A program made the translations under genes and the position numbers. Source: a virus. Taken from it: DNA of 27,130 bases. Where the stretch lies: IMG/VR virus record IMGVR_UViG_3300028024_000007, positions 65,650-92,779 of that record; one strand, given 5' to 3'. Below the pieces are notes generated by a model. That model had not been told where the DNA came from and did not search any database. It saw nothing but the letters and a program-made list of their open reading frames with translations. The first letter of the stretch is position 1, and every line of letters starts with the position of its first letter. Below, piece after piece: positions 3,744-20,109 of the stretch.

Positions 3744-4270
3744 TGTCCGGCCACCAGATGACCTGCACGGATCGGGGCCCGTGCGCGTTCCACGCCGACG
3801 GTGCTCCTCCCGAGGAGAAGTGCCCCGGGTACTGCTGCGTAACGGACTGCCAGGAGCTCGTCGCCTGCGAGGACGCCGAGGACGGCATGTGCCACGCCCA
3901 CGCCGCCGTCTGGCACGCCCAAGAGGCTGGGATCGGGGAATCCGTCCCGTCCTACGTCGACCCCGCCTCCCCCGGGCAGGCCGTCGAGAAGGTCTCCTCC
4001 CTGGACCGCGCGGCCATCGAGGAGGCGGCCGCGCGCCGGCTCGAAGCGTTCGTCCGCGAGGTCTATGCCATGTTCGGGTGGCAGGGCGGGACGGTCCACC
4101 AGCTCGCCGCGGAGGTGAAGCGCCTCCGGCGGGCCGATGCCGCCGCCTCTGAGGTCGCGCAACTCATGTGGCACGCCGAGGGGCGCCCGTGGGGAAGCGT
4201 GCAGGCACGGAGTGCCATCGTCCGCGCCGCGGAGGTCCTCCGCGAGTTCCGCCCGCGCGACAACGGCTGA
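3743..4270 (+). CDS. Hypothetical protein with Cys/His-rich N-terminus
   Basis: TGATG coupling; AAGGAGG RBS; Cys/His cluster (CTDRGPCAFH, CPGYCCVTDC, CHAH). Confidence 0.7.
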   Translation: MSGHQMTCTDRGPCAFHADGAPPEEKCPGYCCVTDCQELVACEDAEDGMCHAHAAVWHAQEAGIGESVPSYVDPASPGQAVEKVSSLDRAAIEEAAARRLEAFVREVYAMFGWQGGTVHQLAAEVKRLRRADAAASEVAQLMWHAEGRPWGSVQARSAIVRAAEVLREFRPRDNG

Positions 4271-8334: not shown

Positions 8335-8558
8335 TGGCCGGCATGGCGAACCCGCGCGAGTACACCGAGCGGGAGGTCCAGCTCATCGAGCGCGCCGTCA
8401 CGCTCCTCCGCCGTGTGCGGGACGACCTGGTGGACGCCGGGGCCCTGCGCGCGGCGGAGGCGGCCAGGGAGTCGCTCCGGTCGGCGGAGGGGGCCCTCCG
8501 GCACATCCGCGGAGTGGTGGACCGGACGAGGGGGGGGCGCAGTGCGCCTGGCAGCTGA
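8334..8558 (+). CDS. Small hypothetical protein
   Basis: TGATG coupling; helical sequence. Confidence 0.6.
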   Translation: MAGMANPREYTEREVQLIERAVTLLRRVRDDLVDAGALRAAEAARESLRSAEGALRHIRGVVDRTRGGRSAPGS

Positions 8559-10770
8559 CAACCTGTGGGCGGTCATCGAGGCCGCCACGGCGGAGGAGCT
8601 CGACTGGCTGGACGGCTACCTGACCGTCCCGGTGAAGGGCGCCGAGTACAGCGAAGCGTACGAGCGCGGCGTGTGGGACGGGTCGGTGAAGCTCCTGGAC
8701 CGGAAGCGGTCCCGGATCGCCTCCGGGCTCCTGCGCCTGGTGGCCGGCCGCGCGAAGGAGGCCGGGTTCGCCTTCGAGGTGAAGGACGTCAGGACCAAGC
8801 CGTTCTGGGTCGTCGACAACCGGTGGGAGCCAGACGCGATCCCCTGGCTCCGCGACTACCAGCGCGAGGCGCTGGGGGTCGTGCTCGGTCGCGGGCGGGG
8901 CATCGTCTCCATGCCGACCGGATGTTTGTCGGGCGACACGGAGATCGGGGCGTACCGGGCTGGTCGCAGCTTTCGGATCAAGATCCGGGATCTGGAGCGC
9001 GGACAGAACGGGCGCGGCCTGCGCCCGTGGACGCAGGATATCCAGACCAAGGTCCGGTGCCGAGAGGAGGACGGGTTCATCAGAGTTCGTTCGATGAAGG
9101 GGGTCTACCGTAGCGGCATCAAGACCACCTTCACCGTGGAGACGAAGGGCGGAAAAAAAATCCGCGCGACTGCAGACCATCGGTTCCTCACGGTCTCGGG
9201 ATGGGAGCGCCTGGGAGACCTGTCGCCCGGGATGCACGTGTTCGTGGAGAAGTCACGCGGAGGCGGAGGTAAGCCGAAGGGGAAGAAGAATTGGTACCAG
9301 CTCGTCGCCGGGCTTCGCGCGCACCCGTACGTTGGGCGGAAGGGCGTGAAACCCGGCAAGGGCGGGTGGAGTGTACCGAAGCACAGGCTCGTCGCGGAGG
9401 CGCGACTCAACGGACTCTCGTTCGAGAAGTTCGTCGGACTGGTCAGGCGTGGTCGCATCGCTGACCTGAAGTTCCTGGACCCGAAGGTCGTCTCCGTCCA
9501 CCACCGGGACGAGAACCCGCGCAACAACGAAGGCTGGAACCTGGATGTCATGCCGAAGGACGAGCATCACAGGGTTCACGGGAAACAGGGCGGATGGCAG
9601 CACGTCACGGCCTCAACGTTCCTGGACGAGATCGTCTCGATCGAACGGTTCGGAGAGGAGGAGACGTTCGACATCGAGATGGAGGCCGATCCGCGCAACT
9701 TCATCGCGAACGGGATCGTCGTTCACAATTCTGGAAAAACACAGGTGTTCTCCGCCCTCGGCGCGTGCGTGGGGATCCGCTGGCTCGTCCTGGTCGACAC
9801 GAAGGACCTGATGCACCAGGCGGCCGACCGCTTCTACCAGCTGACCGGCGAGCGCGCCGGCCTGGCGGGGGACGGCGAGTGGGAGCCGAGGCGGTACACC
9901 GTCGCGACCCTGCAGACCCTGCACAAGCACATGGGGGACAAGGGGCGCGTCGACCAGCTCCTGGCGTCGGCGCAGGGGATGATCGCGGACGAGGTCCAGG
10001 TCCTCTCGGCGACCGAGTTCCGCAAGGTGGCGGTGGCCACGGTGAACGCCTGGTGGCGGGTGGGGTTCTCCGCCACGCCGTTCGAGCGGTCCGACGAGGC
10101 GGACTACCGGGCGATCGAGGTGCTCGGGCCGCTCATCCACGACGTGATGCCGGGACCGCTCATCGCCGCCGGCTGGCTGGCCGAGCCGAGGATCTGGATG
10201 GTCCGGCACCAGCACCAGAAGATGACCGGGTCGTTCGCCGAGGTGTACGAGGCCGGGGTCACCCTGTGCGAGGGGCGCAACGCGCTGGTCAGGCGCATCG
10301 TCGCCGACCGCGACCTCTGCCCACGGCCGTCGATGCTGTTCTTCTCGAAGCTCGCCCACGGGCGGGCGCTCGACCGGTCGCTGAACCCGCTCGGGGTCCG
10401 CACCGTGTTCGTTGAGGGGGCCTCGAGCTCGCGGGCGCGGGACTCCGCCCGCCACCAGCTCCGCGTCCGCCTGCGCGACGTCCTGGTGACGTCCAAGGTG
10501 TTCAACAAGGGGATCGACATCCCCGAGGTCGAGGGGGGCGTGAACGCCGCCGCCGGCGACAGCCGGATCGACGCGCTCCAGAAGGTCGGCCGGCTCATGC
10601 GCGTGGTGGAGGGCAAGAACCGCGTCGTCCGGTACTTCGACTTCGACGACGTCGGGAACCGCTGGCTCGAGCAGCACTCCCGCCACCGCGCCGACGCGTT
10701 CCGATCTCGCGGGTACACCGTCCACCACGTGCGCCCGGAGGACCTGGGCGCGATCGCGAGGGCCGCGTGA
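8542..10770 (+). CDS. SF2 (UvsW/XPB-like) helicase containing an intein
   Basis: WDGSVKL, Q motif LRDYQREA, Walker A PTG/SGKT split by the intein, DEVQ, FSATP, KGIDIP, QKVGRLMR. Confidence 0.9.
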   Translation: MRLAADNLWAVIEAATAEELDWLDGYLTVPVKGAEYSEAYERGVWDGSVKLLDRKRSRIASGLLRLVAGRAKEAGFAFEVKDVRTKPFWVVDNRWEPDAIPWLRDYQREALGVVLGRGRGIVSMPTGCLSGDTEIGAYRAGRSFRIKIRDLERGQNGRGLRPWTQDIQTKVRCREEDGFIRVRSMKGVYRSGIKTTFTVETKGGKKIRATADHRFLTVSGWERLGDLSPGMHVFVEKSRGGGGKPKGKKNWYQLVAGLRAHPYVGRKGVKPGKGGWSVPKHRLVAEARLNGLSFEKFVGLVRRGRIADLKFLDPKVVSVHHRDENPRNNEGWNLDVMPKDEHHRVHGKQGGWQHVTASTFLDEIVSIERFGEEETFDIEMEADPRNFIANGIVVHNSGKTQVFSALGACVGIRWLVLVDTKDLMHQAADRFYQLTGERAGLAGDGEWEPRRYTVATLQTLHKHMGDKGRVDQLLASAQGMIADEVQVLSATEFRKVAVATVNAWWRVGFSATPFERSDEADYRAIEVLGPLIHDVMPGPLIAAGWLAEPRIWMVRHQHQKMTGSFAEVYEAGVTLCEGRNALVRRIVADRDLCPRPSMLFFSKLAHGRALDRSLNPLGVRTVFVEGASSSRARDSARHQLRVRLRDVLVTSKVFNKGIDIPEVEGGVNAAAGDSRIDALQKVGRLMRVVEGKNRVVRYFDFDDVGNRWLEQHSRHRADAFRSRGYTVHHVRPEDLGAIARAA
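8923..9729 (+). mobile_element. 269-aa intein with HNH homing endonuclease
   Basis: N-terminal CLSGDTEI, block B IRATADHRF, C-terminal NFIANGIVVHN followed by Ser+1; internal VHHRDENPRNN...NL...EHHRVH; AT-richer codons than the exteins. Confidence 0.93.
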
Positions 10771-13371: not shown

Positions 13372-13488
13372 ATGATTGAACCAAGGTCGCCTAGATCAAT
13401 CCGTCCCGCTCGTCTTTGGCCTTCAGCAAGCCGGGGGTTCCGCGGGACGGGGCGGGTTGTTCTAGCCGACTTTGGGGGCGGCCGGTGA
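13372..13488 (+). CDS. Possible 38-aa peptide
   Basis: AAAGGA RBS before ATG 13372; stop overlaps the next GTG. Confidence 0.35.
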   Translation: MIEPRSPRSIRPARLWPSASRGFRGTGRVVLADFGGGR

Positions 13489-13679
13489 GTGCGGTCGCCT
13501 CCGGGTGGGCCAAGAAGCGCGCTCGGATCCTGTCCCTCCATGGGAATTCCTGCACATGGTGCGGAGCGGTCGACACGAAGCTCCCGATCCCTCCCCAGGG
13601 ATGCTGGCTGCAGGTCGACCCTCGCGGACCGTCGGAGCGCGGCGTGGTCTGCGTTCGGTATTGCGGAGGTGGGATTTGA
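13485..13679 (+). CDS. Small Cys-containing protein resembling a degenerate HNH-nuclease N-terminus
   Basis: WAKKRARILSLHGNSCTWCG...LQVD...CVRYC; overlaps at both ends. Confidence 0.5.
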   Translation: MSAVASGWAKKRARILSLHGNSCTWCGAVDTKLPIPPQGCWLQVDPRGPSERGVVCVRYCGGGI

Positions 13680-14743
13680 GGTTCGGCTCCCTGTTCTCCG
13701 GGATCGGAGGTCTCGACCTGGCGCTCGAACACTTCGGCCACGCCCCCTTGTGGCAGGCCGAGCGAGACCCGTACGCGCGTAGCGTGCTGGCCCGTCACTG
13801 GCCCGAGGTCAGTTGCTTTCACGACGTGAAGGAGATCGATGGCCACGCCCCCCCCCCTGACATCATCTGCGGCGGTTTCCCCTGCCAGGACATCTCGAAT
13901 GCCGGCAAGCGCGTCGGCATCGACGGCGAGCGATCCGGCCTCTGGTCGGAGTTCGCTCGGATCGTTCGCGAGCTTCGACCGCGCATCGTCCTCGTGGAGA
14001 ACGTCGCAGCTCTCACTGTTCGGGGGCTCGATCGGGTTCTCGGAGATCTGGCCGCGCTCGGGTTCGATGCGGAATGGGACGTGCTTCGAGCGTCCGACGT
14101 CGGCGCGCCCCATCTCCGAGCGCGAATCTTCATTCTTGCCTACGCCGAGCGCGACGCCTTACGGTTCGAATCAGGGTGGCTCGGCGGGCAGGGTCGGGCC
14201 GACTCGTCTGAGTCTCGACTCGATGGCGGCGCAGGGGCTGTGGCTGACGCCCACGGCAGCGGACAGTCGCCGATCGAGCGGAACGTACGCGCGGGGGAGT
14301 CTGACGCTATCCGGTGCCGTACGGACTTGGCCGACTCCGACTCCGACGGCGGGGGACTCCAGAGCCAGCGGCGGGAGGAACACGACCGCAGCGAAGCCAG
14401 GCTCACGGACGCACGCGGGGACGTCGCTTACGGACGCCGTTGTTCGACAGAGCTGGCCGACACCGACGGCGCGGAACGGCGATCCGAAGCGGGGGATGCC
14501 GTCGGCGGAGCTCGCGCAACGGAGACTGGACGACGGGAAGCGCAACCTGGAGGACGCCATCGCGGTCTCCGGCGCTGGGGCAACTGGAGCGTTGAACCCG
14601 AGGTGGGTCGAGTGGCTCATGGGGTTCCCGGACGAGTGGACCGCCTGCGCTGCCTCGGAAACGCCGTCGTCTGGCAGCAAGCGGCGCTCGCGATCGAAGT
14701 CCTGACGGCGCGGGCACTGTCTGACGTCGGCGGTGCCGCATGA
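13676..14743 (+). CDS. DNA cytosine-C5 methyltransferase, large (alpha) polypeptide
   Basis: TTG start with GGAGGT RBS. Motifs: I FSGIGG, IV GGFPCQDIS, VI ENV, VIII PHLRARIF, X RLRCLGNAVV; motif IX is absent from this frame. Confidence 0.92.
   Translation: MRFGSLFSGIGGLDLALEHFGHAPLWQAERDPYARSVLARHWPEVSCFHDVKEIDGHAPPPDIICGGFPCQDISNAGKRVGIDGERSGLWSEFARIVRELRPRIVLVENVAALTVRGLDRVLGDLAALGFDAEWDVLRASDVGAPHLRARIFILAYAERDALRFESGWLGGQGRADSSESRLDGGAGAVADAHGSGQSPIERNVRAGESDAIRCRTDLADSDSDGGGLQSQRREEHDRSEARLTDARGDVAYGRRCSTELADTDGAERRSEAGDAVGGARATETGRREAQPGGRHRGLRRWGNWSVEPEVGRVAHGVPGRVDRLRCLGNAVVWQQAALAIEVLTARALSDVGGAA
13839..14705 (+). CDS. C5 methyltransferase small (beta) polypeptide, nested in the +1 frame
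   Basis: AAGGAG RBS at 13829-13834; carries motif IX-like LNPRWVEWLMGFPDEWT and four (W/L)(P/L)TP modules. Confidence 0.75.
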   Translation: MATPPPLTSSAAVSPARTSRMPASASASTASDPASGRSSLGSFASFDRASSSWRTSQLSLFGGSIGFSEIWPRSGSMRNGTCFERPTSARPISERESSFLPTPSATPYGSNQGGSAGRVGPTRLSLDSMAAQGLWLTPTAADSRRSSGTYARGSLTLSGAVRTWPTPTPTAGDSRASGGRNTTAAKPGSRTHAGTSLTDAVVRQSWPTPTARNGDPKRGMPSAELAQRRLDDGKRNLEDAIAVSGAGATGALNPRWVEWLMGFPDEWTACAASETPSSGSKRRSRSKS

Positions 14744-14859: not shown

Positions 14860-15782
14860 AGTTCGCCGCCGTCTACCCGGCGACCCTGAATGCTCCGCCG
14901 TTCTCCGACGCCTCTCCGGCCGCGCTCGGCGCCTGGGTCCGTCTCGCGGCCGCCGCCGCGGTCGCCGAGTCTGACGAGCTCCTGCTGACTCCGACATCGT
15001 CCGAGCGGACGTTCCTCCTGGGCGCCGGGGTGACCCTGGCAGAGGTCCAGGTGGCGGTCCAGGCGGGCCTCTGCCGGTGGGTCGATGGCGGCCTTTTCGT
15101 AGAGGGCTACGACTACCGCGGGCAGAAGCGTGTCGAGTCGATGCGCTCGAATGGAGCCAAGAGCGGAGGTCGGCCGAAAAAGCCAACAGAATCGAAGGGT
15201 AAAAACCTGCCGGTTAACCAGCCGGGTAACCGGACTGAAACCCAGGCAAAAGCCCCTACCCTTCCTCTCCCTTCCCTTCCTTTCCAAACCAAACCAAACC
15301 CAGAGATCAGAATCAGAGAAGAACACGCGACCGAAACCGGTCGCGCTTCTCCGGTCCAGCAAACCCTGCTGTCTGTGCAATCCGGAGATCCCCGGACCCC
15401 GAAGGTTCCGCGCCCGCGCCGCGCCGCGCTGACCCCGGCCGGGGAGCCTGGTGTCCGCGAGGTGATCGGCTGGTTCTGCGATGCCTGGAAGGAGGCGAAC
15501 GGTGGGGCCCGCTACTGCCTGCTCCCGCGGGACGCCGGGCAGGCGAAGGCGATGGTATCCGGTCTACCTGCGGCGCTGATGGCTGAGCTCCCGGTGATGT
15601 TCCAGCGGTATATGCGCGACCGGGACCCGTTCGTGGAGAAGCAGGGGCGGAGCCTGGCGTTCTTTTGCACGAGCGGCGGGGTGAACAAATATCGGTCGGA
15701 GCGTCCCGCCGGCCAACACGCGAACGGGCACGTCAAGGCGACGTCCGACAAGGTCTTCGTGACCGGGAGGGTAGCGGTATGA
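14856..15782 (+). CDS. Phage replication initiator protein
   Basis: N-terminal helical domain, NGAKSGGRPKK, low-complexity linker LPLPSLPFQTKPNPEIRIREE, C-terminal domain; lies directly upstream of the DnaC-like gene. Confidence 0.7.
   Translation: MKFAAVYPATLNAPPFSDASPAALGAWVRLAAAAAVAESDELLLTPTSSERTFLLGAGVTLAEVQVAVQAGLCRWVDGGLFVEGYDYRGQKRVESMRSNGAKSGGRPKKPTESKGKNLPVNQPGNRTETQAKAPTLPLPSLPFQTKPNPEIRIREEHATETGRASPVQQTLLSVQSGDPRTPKVPRPRRAALTPAGEPGVREVIGWFCDAWKEANGGARYCLLPRDAGQAKAMVSGLPAALMAELPVMFQRYMRDRDPFVEKQGRSLAFFCTSGGVNKYRSERPAGQHANGHVKATSDKVFVTGRVAV
15204..15322. repeat. Iteron-like 12-bp repeats plus strand-asymmetric tract: candidate replication origin
   Basis: AACCTGCCGGTT / AACCAGCCGGGT / AACCGGACTGAA / ACCCAGGCAAAA, followed by a CT-rich run, (CCAAA)x3 and a purine-rich run. 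Confidence 0.55.
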
Positions 15783-16432
15783 GCAAACCAGAGATCGGGA
15801 AGGACGAGAAGATCGGGGACTACGTGAAGCGCCTGGAGGCGTGGGGGCTCACGCCAGAGGGCGCGGCGCACGCGTCGCTCGCCCTGCGCCTGCAGGAGGA
15901 GGCCAGGCGTGACGAGGACGCGCGGTGGCTCCGTGACCAGGCCTGCGTCCCGAGGTCGGTCCTGGAGATCTTGGTGAAGGAGGTCCGGGCTACGGAGCCG
16001 ATGGAGGTCGCGCGCCAGAACCAGGCGTGCAAGCTCCTGGTCCTGGCGGGGAAGGCTGGGGCCGGGAAGACCGTCGCGGCCTGCTGGCTGGTGGCCCAGC
16101 CGAAGACGAAGACGGCCCTGTTCGTGAAGGCGGCGCAGCTCGCGCGGTGGCAGCGGTACGACGAGGACGAGGTCGACCGACTCATCGACCCCGGGCTCCT
16201 GGTCATCGACGACCTGGGGGCCGAGTTCAACGACGAGCGCGGGTCGTTCCTGACCCTGCTCGACGAGGTCCTGGTCCGGCGGCTCGAGGAGAAGCGGCGG
16301 ACGGTCGTGACGACGAACCTGGACGCCGGGGAGTGGGAGGCGCGCTACGGGATCCGGATCCTCGACCGCATCCGCGAGTCGGGCGTGTTCTACCAGTTCG
16401 GCGGGCCGTCGCTCCGCGGGCGTGCGCTCTGA
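15779..16432 (+). CDS. DnaC/IstB-like AAA+ helicase loader
   Basis: Walker A GKAGAGKT, Walker B LLVIDDLG, VVTTNL, RILDRI. Confidence 0.88.
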   Translation: MSKPEIGKDEKIGDYVKRLEAWGLTPEGAAHASLALRLQEEARRDEDARWLRDQACVPRSVLEILVKEVRATEPMEVARQNQACKLLVLAGKAGAGKTVAACWLVAQPKTKTALFVKAAQLARWQRYDEDEVDRLIDPGLLVIDDLGAEFNDERGSFLTLLDEVLVRRLEEKRRTVVTTNLDAGEWEARYGIRILDRIRESGVFYQFGGPSLRGRAL

Positions 16433-16791
16433 TGGCGAACCAAGTGGAGATGGTGGAGCCGTGGGTGGTCTGTCCGAGCACGGGCCCCGAGGACCCGCTG
16501 GCGGCGGAGTTCGTGGCTACCCAGGATGGCGAATCGGTCATCGAAACGGACGGGAACGATGAGATCATCTTCGCCTCGCTCGAGGTCCGCGAGCTCGTCA
16601 GGCTGGCTCCGAAGATGCTGGCGCTGCTCCGCGACCTCGAGTGGGAAGGTAGCGCGTTCGTGCTGGAGGGAAGTGGCGGCTGTCCGCAGTGCGGCGCGGA
16701 GGGCTCAGCGGAGTATCCCGGTAAGCATGAGGACGGGTGCGTGCTCGCCGAGATCTTGAACGCCGTGGACGCCGTCCGAAAAGGGACCTGA
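16432..16791 (+). CDS. Hypothetical protein with CxxC
   Basis: TGATG coupling; LAPKMLALL and CPQC...H...C. Confidence 0.65.
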   Translation: MANQVEMVEPWVVCPSTGPEDPLAAEFVATQDGESVIETDGNDEIIFASLEVRELVRLAPKMLALLRDLEWEGSAFVLEGSGGCPQCGAEGSAEYPGKHEDGCVLAEILNAVDAVRKGT

Positions 16792-17684
16792 TGGCGAAGC
16801 GCATCGCTCTCCCTGTCGAGCTCGTCGGCATGGCCGTGATCGCGAGTGTGAGCGGCGGCAAGGACTCGACCGCGCTCCTTCTGGCGCTGCGTGAGGAGGG
16901 CATCCCGCATCGGGCCGTGTTCGCTGATACGGGGTGGGAGGCGCCGGAGACATACGCCTATCTCGACCTGCTGCGCACCCGGATGGGGCTCGCCATTGAC
17001 GTGGTCGGAACGCCAGGCGGGATGGAGGCGAAGATCCGAGCGCGGGCTGGGTTCCCGGGCCGGATGCAGCGATGGTGCACGCGTGAACTGAAACTGGAAC
17101 CGTTGCGCGCCTACCACGATCGCGTCGAGGAGGAGACCGGCCTCGAGAGCGTCTGCGCGGTCGGCGTGCGCGCGGCCGAGAGCGACGCCCGGGCAAAGAT
17201 GCCGGAGCTCGAAGACGAGCCGGACGGGCCGCGGTCGTGGGGCGGATGGGTGTGGCGGCCGCTCATCCGCTGGACGGTCGAGGACGTGATCGGCATGCAC
17301 AACCGGCACGGCATCCCGGTCAACCCGCTCTACCAGCGCGGTCACAACCGGGTCGGCTGCTTCCCGTGCATCTACGCGGGCAAGGAGGAGATCGCGCTGG
17401 TGGCCGAGCACGCGCCAGAGAAGATCGACCAGATCGCGGCGCTCGAGGTCGAGATGACGGCCCTGCGCGCTGAGCGAAACGCCGCCGAGCCGGAGCGCTA
17501 CAAACACCCGGAGGCGACGTTTTTCATGGCTCGGCATGGCGTCGAGCCGATGGACATTCGCGCCGTCGTCGATTGGTCGCGCACGTCGCGCGGAGGACGG
17601 CAGCTGAAGCTCTTGGCCGATCCGCCGCAGGGAGGGTGCATGCGCTGGGGGATCTGCGACACGCCCTCCGAAGAAGCGCCCTGA
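16791..17684 (+). CDS. PAPS reductase family (PP-loop) protein
   Basis: SGGKDS, DTGWE, RWCT..LK, GVRAAES..R, PLIRW, NPLY..G..RVGCFPC. Confidence 0.88.
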   Translation: MAKRIALPVELVGMAVIASVSGGKDSTALLLALREEGIPHRAVFADTGWEAPETYAYLDLLRTRMGLAIDVVGTPGGMEAKIRARAGFPGRMQRWCTRELKLEPLRAYHDRVEEETGLESVCAVGVRAAESDARAKMPELEDEPDGPRSWGGWVWRPLIRWTVEDVIGMHNRHGIPVNPLYQRGHNRVGCFPCIYAGKEEIALVAEHAPEKIDQIAALEVEMTALRAERNAAEPERYKHPEATFFMARHGVEPMDIRAVVDWSRTSRGGRQLKLLADPPQGGCMRWGICDTPSEEAP

Positions 17685-18082
17685 TGGCGAAGCCCGCGCC
17701 CGCGAAGACGTTCGCGACCTACTCTCCGAGCTCGTCCATCTGGACTCCGATCTACGAACTGACGAAGGAGTTCGTGACCTGGGAGGTGCTCTGCCCCGGG
17801 TGCCTGAAGGACTTCGTCTCCCGGCGCTGGACGCCGAAGGCGGTCGGGCTCGCGCCCCAGAAGTGTCTCCGCTGCGCTGCCCGCGCGGCCAACAAGCAAA
17901 CCCAGGAGGTCCCCCGTGCCCAGACGACCGAGCCCGAAGAAGCCCGACCGAACCACGATTCGGAACGCCGTCCCGCTGACCCTGCACCCGCGCCGGCCGG
18001 AGGACCTGCTCTCCGCCTGCAACCTGTGCGGCGTGCCGGGCCCGCTCGACAAAAACCCGCAGCGCGAGCACGACGAGCATGA
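17684..18082 (+). CDS. Hypothetical zinc-ribbon protein; 3' end overlaps the next gene
   Basis: TGATG coupling; CPGC and CLRC. Confidence 0.55.
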   Translation: MAKPAPAKTFATYSPSSSIWTPIYELTKEFVTWEVLCPGCLKDFVSRRWTPKAVGLAPQKCLRCAARAANKQTQEVPRAQTTEPEEARPNHDSERRPADPAPAPAGGPALRLQPVRRAGPARQKPAARARRA

Positions 18083-18404
18083 CGTCCCGGTCGAGGGCGA
18101 CGGGGCCCTCGTGTTCCTGGGTGAGCGCCCGGCGCACGTGCTCTGCCACCAGCTACTGGAGGACCACCCGCGGCTCTACGCGCGGGTCCGCGGGAACCCC
18201 GGGCACCTGCCGGTGCTCTGCGGCCCGTGCGTCTGGCGGAGCGGGCTCGGGTGCCGGCACCCGGACCTGAAGTCGAACGGCGGTCGCGGCCTGAACGTCG
18301 GGTTGACCAACGGCCTGCCGCCGAACGCCATCATCTGCCCGCCGCCTAAGATCGTGCCGTGGGCGGTGTCCTGCTCTGGGTTCGCTGACGCGGGTGAGTC
18401 GTGA
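17916..18404 (+). CDS. Cys/His-rich hypothetical protein
   Basis: RBS AACCCAGGAGG before GTG; CNLC, CGPC; high GC3. Confidence 0.65.
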   Translation: MPRRPSPKKPDRTTIRNAVPLTLHPRRPEDLLSACNLCGVPGPLDKNPQREHDEHDVPVEGDGALVFLGERPAHVLCHQLLEDHPRLYARVRGNPGHLPVLCGPCVWRSGLGCRHPDLKSNGGRGLNVGLTNGLPPNAIICPPPKIVPWAVSCSGFADAGES

Positions 18405-18718
18405 GGCTCCGCGGGACGCCGCTGCAGCGCGCTCGTGATCTCGTCGAGGCGGCGATGCACGATATCATCCATGAGTGGGACGAGTGGCACGACAGGGGCA
18501 GCGTGTTGCCGCGCGGCGAGCTGGAGCTGCAACTAGACTGCGAGTCGACCAGCTATGTGCTGGTGGTCAAAGTCTACCCGGAAGAAGAGTCGTACTTCGC
18601 TGGCGACATCGTCACGGCGCTGGAACCCGTCCTCAAGCTCCACGGCGTGAACCGTGTCGAAGTGAGGTCGAGCTTTGCGAAGAGCGAGACGCTGTCCTAC
18701 GAGGACGACGCGGAGTGA
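18401..18718 (+). CDS. Hypothetical protein
   Basis: GTGA overlaps at both ends. Confidence 0.65.
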   Translation: MRLRGTPLQRARDLVEAAMHDIIHEWDEWHDRGSVLPRGELELQLDCESTSYVLVVKVYPEEESYFAGDIVTALEPVLKLHGVNRVEVRSSFAKSETLSYEDDAE

Positions 18719-20109
18719 GCGACCACGCGGAGGGTGGCGCGCGGCGCCCGGTCAGGAAGGTCGCGCCGAGCAACGGGCAGGCGGAGATGGCGGTGCTCGG
18801 CGCGATCATCCTGTCCCCGGACCGTTTCCACGAGGTGGCGGGTCTCGTGCGCACGGACGACTTCCTGATCCCCGCGCACCGGGAGATCTGGGACGCGTTC
18901 GTCCACGTCGACGCGGAGAAGAAGGCGCTCGACGTCATCGGCATCGCCGACGCCCTCCGCGATCGGCAGGTGACCGCGCGTCTCCCGGAAGGGGAGATGT
19001 ACTTGCTGAAGCTCACGAACGCGGTGTCGACCGCGGAGAACGTGATGCACTACGCGCGCATAGTCCGCGCAAAGTCCGAGCTGCGCCAGCTCATCGCGGT
19101 GTGCACGGAGACGGCGAGCCGCGCGTACGCCGCTGACGATCCGGAGGAGCTCGCCGCAGACTGCCTGGCGAAGCTCGAGAAGATCGGCGCATACGCCAGG
19201 ACGGGTGGACCGTCGCGGATCGGGAAGATGGTGAACGACGTGGTCGACGAAGTCGAGAAGCGCGGCGACAAGCCGTCCGGCGCGTACGTGAAGATCGGAC
19301 TCTCCGCGTACGACGCGATGTACTGCGGCCTCCCCGCCGGCAGCCTCGTCATCGTCGCGCAGAGACCAGGCGGAGGTAAGACAGGGTTCGTCGTCTCGAC
19401 GCTCATCCGCATGGGCATCAACGGCGTGCCGACGCTACTGTTCTCGCAGGAGATGAATAAGCAGCGCATCGTGGAGCGAGCGCTGTCGTTCACCTCGCGC
19501 ATCGATGCGCGCAAGTTCAGGCGCGGCACGATCGAGCGCGGCGACTGGAAGGACGTGCACCGCGGGAGCAAGGTCCTCTTCGACCTCCCGCTCGACATCG
19601 ACGACCGGACAGACCTGACGGCGGAGCTCATCCGCGCGGAGATCCGTCGCTGGTGCTACCGCGTCGATCGCGAGGCCGCGCAGCAAGGGAAGGAGCGCCC
19701 GCTGAAGGTCGTCGCCATCGACTCGATGTCGCTGACGGTCCCGGAGAAACCAGGGAAGAACCGCATGGACGACGTGACGAAGATGAGCCGCGAGTTCAAG
19801 AACCTGGCGCAGGGGCTGAACGTCACCATCATCCTCATCGTCCACCTGTCGCGCGAGATCGAAAAGGGCAAGAAGCCGCGCAAGCCGAAGCTCTCCGACC
19901 TGCGCGAGAGTGGCGCGCTCGAGCAGGACGCGGACGTGGTGATCTTCCCCTGGCGCGAGCCGGGGACGCGCTCGGCGGGCGGGGGTCCTGTGGAGGCGCT
20001 CCTGCTCGTCCCGAAGGCCAGGGACGACGTTGAGGGCGGGGAGATCCCCGTCCAGTGGGACGGTCGGTTCACCGCTTTCTACGACGCGCCGGAAGACCCG
20101 GGGGTCTGA
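18715..20109 (+). CDS. dnaB: DnaB-like replicative helicase
   Basis: AEMAVLGAII, DFLIPAHREI, QRPGGGKT, FSQEM, LSDLRESGALEQDADVV. Confidence 0.93.
   Translation: MSDHAEGGARRPVRKVAPSNGQAEMAVLGAIILSPDRFHEVAGLVRTDDFLIPAHREIWDAFVHVDAEKKALDVIGIADALRDRQVTARLPEGEMYLLKLTNAVSTAENVMHYARIVRAKSELRQLIAVCTETASRAYAADDPEELAADCLAKLEKIGAYARTGGPSRIGKMVNDVVDEVEKRGDKPSGAYVKIGLSAYDAMYCGLPAGSLVIVAQRPGGGKTGFVVSTLIRMGINGVPTLLFSQEMNKQRIVERALSFTSRIDARKFRRGTIERGDWKDVHRGSKVLFDLPLDIDDRTDLTAELIRAEIRRWCYRVDREAAQQGKERPLKVVAIDSMSLTVPEKPGKNRMDDVTKMSREFKNLAQGLNVTIILIVHLSREIEKGKKPRKPKLSDLRESGALEQDADVVIFPWREPGTRSAGGGPVEALLLVPKARDDVEGGEIPVQWDGRFTAFYDAPEDPGV

Follow-up and report, generated by a model that had tools for sequence, protein, structure and literature searches.

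Two nested reading frames predicted to encode the subunits of a DNA (cytosine-5) methyltransferase in a virus and its relatives

Can one stretch of viral DNA, read in two frames a single base apart, specify the two parts of one enzyme? The question is raised by a locus at positions 13676 to 14743 of the DNA analysed here, the last 27 kb (27,130 nucleotides (nt), hereafter the window) of the 92.8-kb virus record IMGVR_UViG_3300028024_000007 of IMG/VR, a metagenome-derived contig; the window has a guanine plus cytosine (GC) content of 69%. An initial annotation, made from the letters alone, had proposed that this locus encodes a DNA (cytosine-5) (C5) methyltransferase in two fully nested reading frames, with the design of the heterodimeric enzyme M.EcoHK31I. 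We consider it highly probable, from the sequence and its relatives, that one DNA stretch with an overlap of about 870 nt is read in two frames to give a two-subunit C5 methyltransferase, a large-domain subunit (alpha) and a small-domain subunit (beta) made as separate polypeptides. Alpha (13676-14743) would supply the parts of the large catalytic domain that binds S-adenosylmethionine (AdoMet), namely motifs I-VIII and the C-terminal motif-X helix. Beta (13839-14705) would be initiated separately within alpha, in a frame shifted by one base, at an AAGGAG-ATG of its own, and would supply the small-domain parts, that is the variable target-recognition region with its PTP repeats, and motif IX. 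The two chains would then associate and jointly methylate C5 of cytosine.

What does the alpha frame encode by itself? Frame A is open from 13472 to 14743, an open reading frame (ORF) of 423 amino acids (aa). Within it the start of alpha is most likely TTG 13676, given that GGAGG precedes this codon and that ATG, GTG or TTG stands at the same position in related loci, before (G)SLFSGIGG. The features of alpha are listed below; P0238 is a single-chain methyltransferase related to the pair.

13665-13669, + strand: GGAGG, a Shine-Dalgarno-like sequence read from the sequence, 6 nt upstream of the alpha start
13676-14743, + strand: alpha gene (355 aa, TTG start), with motifs I-VIII, an apparently unconstrained linker, and pre-X plus motif X
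13676-14149, + strand: catalytic part of alpha (Pfam PF00145; M.HhaI alignment; 45% identity to P0238 residues 1-184)
13694-13711, + strand: alpha motif I, FSGIGG, frame A
13874-13888, + strand: alpha motif IV, GFPCQ (Cys70), frame A
13997-14005, + strand: alpha motif VI, ENV, frame A
14117-14131, + strand: alpha motif VIII, RARIF, frame A
14594-14743, + strand: alpha pre-X and motif X, EPEVGRVAHGVPGRVDRLRCLGNAVVWQQAALAIEVL..., of which the first 50 nt are nucleotides of beta motif IX
14654-14671, + strand: alpha motif X, LGNAVV, frame A

Frame A matches the Pfam family DNA_methylase (PF00145) with 142.2 bits, against a gathering cutoff of 22, over residues 70-227 of the 423-aa ORF. The match covers only profile positions 2-164 of 324, the motif I-VIII part. 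Likewise, residues 12-172 of M.HhaI align to alpha residues 1-157 only (E 3e-22), with motifs I-VIII covered. All four catalytic motifs of C5 methyltransferases (I, IV with the catalytic Cys, VI and VIII) lie in frame A. Motif IX is not in the same polypeptide as motifs I-VIII, for LNPRWVEWLMGFPDEW is confined to the +1 frame, and motif X is again in frame A; alpha residues 158-306 match nothing. The initial annotation had credited frame A with motifs I-VIII plus X but no motif IX, and this is what we find. An 87-codon ORF at 13416-13679, in the same frame as beta and with no Pfam match, ends in a TGA that overlaps the alpha TTG start (TTGA), an arrangement that suggests translational coupling into alpha.

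The missing part is found one base out of step. As the initial annotation had stated, the +1 frame is open for 288 codons from 13839 to 14705, has its own AAGGAG and carries motif IX. The AAGGAG lies 4 nt before the ATG, and motif IX lies 65 nt upstream of the GN of motif X.

13829-13834, + strand: AAGGAG, the beta Shine-Dalgarno sequence, preceded by a TGA of the +1 frame (13827-13829), the ATG following 4 nt on
13839-14705, + strand: beta gene (288 aa), entirely nested within alpha at +1; stop at 14703-14705
13839-14040, + strand: beta leader (about 67 aa, rich in Ser, Ala, Pro and Thr), over alpha motifs IV-VI
14133-14591, + strand: beta variable region, in the position of a target-recognition domain (TRD), with four (W/L)PTP-type repeats and AHAGTSLTDAV; in frame A this DNA is the alpha linker
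14592-14642, + strand: beta motif IX, LNPRWVEWLMGFPDEWT, which is in frame in single-chain relatives

Beta also contains WPRSGSMRNG (14049-14078). Searched against Pfam and PDB sequences, beta gave no match. In tblastn, the +1 translation matched C5 methyltransferases annotated in phages, with E-values from about 6e-6 down to 2e-9, and HMMER against 1.8 billion representative proteins returned 16,286 clusters at E<=0.001, 5,884 of them at <=1e-10. Of the HMMER matches with a Pfam report or scan, nearly all lack a Pfam domain and are called 'hypothetical' or are unnamed. At least 14 of the matches, a minority, are true single-chain methyltransferases. Their order is motifs I-VIII, PTP repeats, LNPxWVExLMGxPxGW and GNxVVP, with EPxRLV..RLR before motif X, and GNxVVP comes 56-78 residues after the start of LNPxWVExLMGxPxGW. 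P0238 is colinear with the pair throughout: its residues 1-184 match alpha 1-155 (E 2e-43), residues 300-421 match beta 130-269 (E 2e-18) and residues 471-500 match alpha 317-346 (E 5e-4), while alpha 156-316 has no match. Therefore all three pieces of the enzyme are present in the window, the middle piece one base out of step.

In structures of M.HhaI, motifs I-VIII and X make up the large domain, and the variable region and motif IX the small domain. On that basis alpha would be the equivalent of the large domain and beta that of the small domain. An AlphaFold model of P0238 has a per-residue confidence (predicted local distance difference test, pLDDT) mostly above 90 in the N-domain and mostly 70-94 in the motif IX and motif X blocks. 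Its N-domain superimposes on M.HhaI with a root-mean-square deviation of 2.0 Å over 192 columns (E 6e-15); the PDB matches are to the N-domain only. For alignment, single-chain sequences only were used (A3), a mixed alignment of single-chain proteins with alpha and beta fragments (A2) having been discarded after MAFFT put beta fragments on N-domain columns.

Is the layout peculiar to this contig? About 160 related viral loci were fetched with the N-domain or the +1 translation as seed, and the layout was compared across about 150 (135 distinct). All loci in which both the N-domain and the middle part can be recognised have the latter at +1 relative to the former, and motif X, wherever detected, is back in frame 0 with one exception (L087). 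Among the 135 distinct loci, with GC contents from 0.45 to 0.72, 120 have an open alpha frame that encloses the whole beta ORF. The beta LNP and the alpha GN are exactly 65 nt apart in 96 of 108 loci. The cultured Salmonella phage SEN5 has the same layout (L162:1089-2078; NC_028701.2 27561-28550): its SEN5_42 is annotated as one 330-aa 'DNA methyltransferase', inside which lies an unannotated +1 ORF of 280 codons (locus 1210-2052) with WPTPTA repeats and LNPELALWLMGLPDEW. The RefSeq entry of a cultured phage thus misses the second subunit, and the expectation that gene callers would overlook the nested protein is borne out. Stops in the +1 frame of close homologues had been named as an observation that would refute the proposal; we find the frame uninterrupted in close and distant homologues alike.

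These loci also bear on whether the gene is simply damaged. A decayed pseudogene, or an ordinary single-frame gene assembled with two compensating indel errors, could look like this, and the sequence is a metagenome contig that has a 10-C homopolymer at 13848-13857, while L087 apparently contains a 1-nt indel. Yet about 135 independent and divergent loci, drawn from many samples, show identical frame offsets, as do cultured-phage genomes, and a pair of indels cannot interconvert the two layouts, because motif IX and pre-X are sequential in the single-chain relatives. We therefore regard decay or misassembly as extremely improbable.

Several loci depart from the common layout. In L087 (2980-4075; 71% identity in the N-domain) there is one further base shift past about position 3800, which puts motif IX into the third frame and motif X at +1; a single 1-nt indel, in a pseudogene or through an assembly error, would explain it. 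L130 (2998-4015; 51% GC) is split in the manner of M.AquI and not fully nested: its alpha of 226 aa has motifs I-VIII only, and an overlapping 287-aa +1 ORF holds PTP repeats and motif IX, then pre-X and motif X 20 residues on in the same frame. Downstream in L130 (4012-5409) lies a gene for a methyltransferase with an SPPY motif (amino-type). In L011 (2107-3522) a stop falls within the frame-A N-domain match, alpha is open for 77 codons only and the +1 frame for 471; this may be a recoded, broken or differently fused form. A few proteins, for instance P0144, appear to fuse part of alpha with the beta frame; we do not take them as true fusions and read them as indel or gene-calling artefacts.

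A question remains, are both frames coding, or is one of them a shadow of the other? It is conceivable that alpha alone is the enzyme, with its own variable region as TRD, and that the +1 ORF arises merely from the high GC content and is not translated: at 69% GC long ORFs in alternative frames are common, and in a whole-gene synonymous shuffle of alpha the window gave 3 stops in the +1 frame against 2.9 expected, which is not significant. Given that beta would dictate the amino-acid sequence of alpha's middle, the whole-gene shuffle was replaced by segment-wise tests across loci, with synonymous-codon shuffles as the baseline for the alpha N-domain (124 loci) and for the beta middle region (123 loci). 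Counted from the alpha start, the +1 frame of the N-domain has 5 stops at offsets 230-390 where 151.7 are expected, and 1 at offsets 390-474 where 46.4 are expected. At offsets 0-150 it has 209 against 167, that is no depletion, and stops in the +2 frame of the N-domain are at 0.89-1.03 of expectation. Depletion thus begins between offsets 150 and 230, which indicates that beta is read from about there; the ATG of the window is at offset 163. Conversely, in the beta middle region frame A has 19 stops where 424.6 are expected, and the third frame 860 against 776, again no depletion. In the window itself, frame A has no stop in 14136-14645 where, given beta coding, 3.9 are expected, and 0.85% of 2000 shuffles give none.

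Substitutions tell the same story. Measured against the closest relatives (L083, L082 and L084), they peak in the N part at frame-A position 3 (0.28-0.50, versus 0.04-0.22 at positions 1 and 2). In 14151-14640 the peak moves to frame-A position 1, which is beta position 3 (0.45-0.53 versus 0.16-0.36), and in 14041-14150 rates are low at all three codon positions. GC at third codon positions flips to the beta frame in 14401-14640. In the middle region, amino-acid identity to these three relatives reaches 62-73% for the beta frame, against 38-43% for the alpha frame and 38-46% for the third frame. Both frames are thus open, homologous to methyltransferase sequences and under selection. An enzyme made of alpha alone is, by these results, very improbable. 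Conservation of its variable region does not exceed that of the third frame, and the +1 translation has its homologue in frame in the middle of single-chain methyltransferases; loci of 45-52% GC still have the nested ORF, and alpha has no motif IX. What the initial annotation had called a low-complexity variable region of alpha is indeed present, though it is better described as a linker of about 150 residues that appears to be the frame-A read-through of beta DNA, selected only to contain no stop. Both frames are open throughout the proposed 870 bp or so of dual coding, and two short stretches are truly dual-coded in the sense that conserved motifs are found in both frames.

14041-14150, + strand: first dual-constrained stretch, alpha motifs VII-VIII over beta WPRSGSMRNG, up to the first PTP repeat

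In this first stretch, consensus motifs emerge from both frames across 100 loci, alpha VII-VIII lying over beta FSxTWPRSGxMRxG...LWPTP. In the second, W..EPxVGRVAHGVPxRVDRLRxLGNAVVPQ of alpha lies over GxLNPxWVEWLMGFPxGWT of beta, and conservation across 96 loci is 90% or more at most positions, beta motif IX included. In single-chain relatives motif IX and pre-X/X are sequential and encoded by separate DNA; because they are separate there, both must be genuine protein motifs. Here they occupy the same nucleotides, and therefore a single pass of the ribosome cannot yield both. This speaks directly to a further possibility, a single polypeptide produced by two programmed frameshifts, +1 near 14140 and -1 near 14645. 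The joined frames would indeed give the order of the single-chain enzymes, I-VIII, TRD, IX, X. However, stops are kept out of the +1 frame over about 240 nt before the first shift site, and out of frame A over about 500 nt past it, and a product of frameshifting requires neither. The IX/pre-X and the WPRSG/VII-VIII pairs are each conserved on shared nucleotides and no single pass includes both members; the Shine-Dalgarno sequence and ATG of beta are conserved; and inspection of 14130-14150 and 14640-14650 shows no slippery heptamer. Production by frameshifting is therefore very unlikely, and two separately initiated chains, alpha and beta, are the reading that we retain.

Where would beta begin? 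The context of its start, TGA-(A/G)GGAG-ATCG-ATG, is the same in L083 and L082, and near-identical contexts (GGAGATTGATG, GGGAAATCGATG) are found in L084, L086 and L088, so that it is preserved in all five of the closest relatives that retain the layout. In more distant loci an ATG with a Shine-Dalgarno-like sequence is found at offsets 142-226, just upstream of the alpha PCQ, where alpha varies. The beta leader is kept open family-wide, though its protein sequence is not conserved. The run of ten C at 13848-13857 lies 9 nt past the beta ATG and within both ORFs (alpha APPP, beta TPPP). At that place the run has 9 C in L083, 10 in L082 and 8 in L087, and L084, L086 and L088 have none. A homopolymer of this length is slippage-prone and could switch off both subunits, or could cause an assembly error.

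Several observations weigh against a two-subunit enzyme with an independently started beta. Judged in this 69% GC window alone, the open +1 frame is weak evidence and not statistically unusual, and 13839-14149 stays open in 59% of shuffles; as openness proves little at this GC, the case is built on homology and comparative data. The leader (13839-14040) is without amino-acid constraint, and substitutions in it follow the wobble of frame A; because of this the exact start codon of beta is only a prediction. An ATG at 14067 (offset 391-397) is nearly universal too, and could be an alternative beta start or just encode the conserved Met of GxMRxG. When beta was modelled by itself in AlphaFold with 62 homologues, the result was poor (mean pLDDT 63, predicted template modelling score 0.35), and Foldseek of this model against the PDB found nothing below E 2.6. 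In the P0238 model, too, the PTP-repeat region has a pLDDT below 50, and because of this low confidence the TRD label is based on the position of the region between motifs VIII and IX and on the variability of its length and repeat number among loci.

What might such an enzyme do for the virus? From the sequence we infer separate translation of the two chains, heterodimer formation and activity, as well as the biological role, which is likely to be self-methylation of phage DNA against host restriction. The protective role is suggested by the placement of the gene in a phage replication module that has no evident restriction gene; among the neighbouring ORFs scanned with Pfam, no restriction enzyme was evident. 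A downstream replication and modification module (15665-20109) comprises an IstB-like ATPase (15665-16432), a PAPS-reductase-domain protein (16737-17684) and a DnaB-type helicase (18475-20109). Further upstream, a 785-aa ORF (8413-10770) encodes an intein-interrupted helicase, with ResIII/DEAD and Helicase_C domains and Intein_splicing at residues 213-439.

The consequences reach beyond this contig. We think it probable that the locus belongs to a very large family of phage and prophage C5 methyltransferases that are normally nested in two frames, with beta carrying the entire specificity region, that the overlap was created or resolved more than once, and that databases contain thousands of members, entered as a 'methyltransferase' whose middle part is meaningless or left as an unannotated 'hypothetical protein'. 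A literature search found, among the papers it covered, no description of such a phage-wide nested family. Gene callers report only one of the two frames, alpha is then given a meaningless variable region, and the specificity part is hidden or called 'hypothetical'; therefore predicting specificity from the annotated protein would fail. Monomeric C5 methyltransferases have their small domain as an insertion in the large one; here the nested gene would deliver the large and the small domain as separate chains. Same-strand dual coding over some 870 nt is rare outside small viruses, and the comparative support for it in this case is unusually clean. The coexistence of nested, split and single-chain forms makes the family a natural system in which to study the origin and the resolution of gene overlaps.

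How does the pair compare with the systems already known? Like the monomeric M.HhaI and M.HaeIII, and like the single-chain relatives P0238, P0196, P0200 and P0212, it has the catalytic motifs in the usual order. Unlike those monomers, which are one chain in one frame with IX followed by pre-X/X, it has IX and pre-X overprinted on the same DNA. In the account given in PMC3404938 (citing Karreman and de Waard 1990), M.AquI (CYCGRG) is a natural C5 methyltransferase of two polypeptides, with the break in its variable region and with both IX and X in the small subunit. The two-polypeptide layout would be shared; motif X, however, is here in the alpha frame, and it is the relative L130 that has the AquI-like arrangement. 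The closest parallel is M.EcoHK31I of E. coli HK31 (YGGCCR), a natural alpha/beta C5 methyltransferase whose beta, in the parts of PMC2836561 and PMC3404938 that deal with it (citing Lee, Kam and Shaw 1995), is encoded wholly inside the alpha gene in another reading frame. Compared by its published description, the present pair is alike in that alpha carries motifs I-VIII plus X, and beta has motif IX, and in that the beta ORF lies wholly inside alpha in an alternative frame, here +1 with its own start. Progressive N-terminal deletions of the M.EcoHK31I beta weaken alpha-beta association (PMC2836561), and by analogy the beta leader may have a similar role here. The M.EcoHK31I-like design that had been proposed therefore holds in every element that can be found in sequence, and is to be amended in one respect: in M.EcoHK31I as described in those parts of the two papers the predicted TRD is in alpha and only motif IX in beta, whereas here the whole variable region, with its four PTP repeats, is selected in the beta frame together with motif IX. 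The present gene differs also in being an orphan methyltransferase in a phage replication module. It belongs to a known but barely documented kind of nested C5 methyltransferase.

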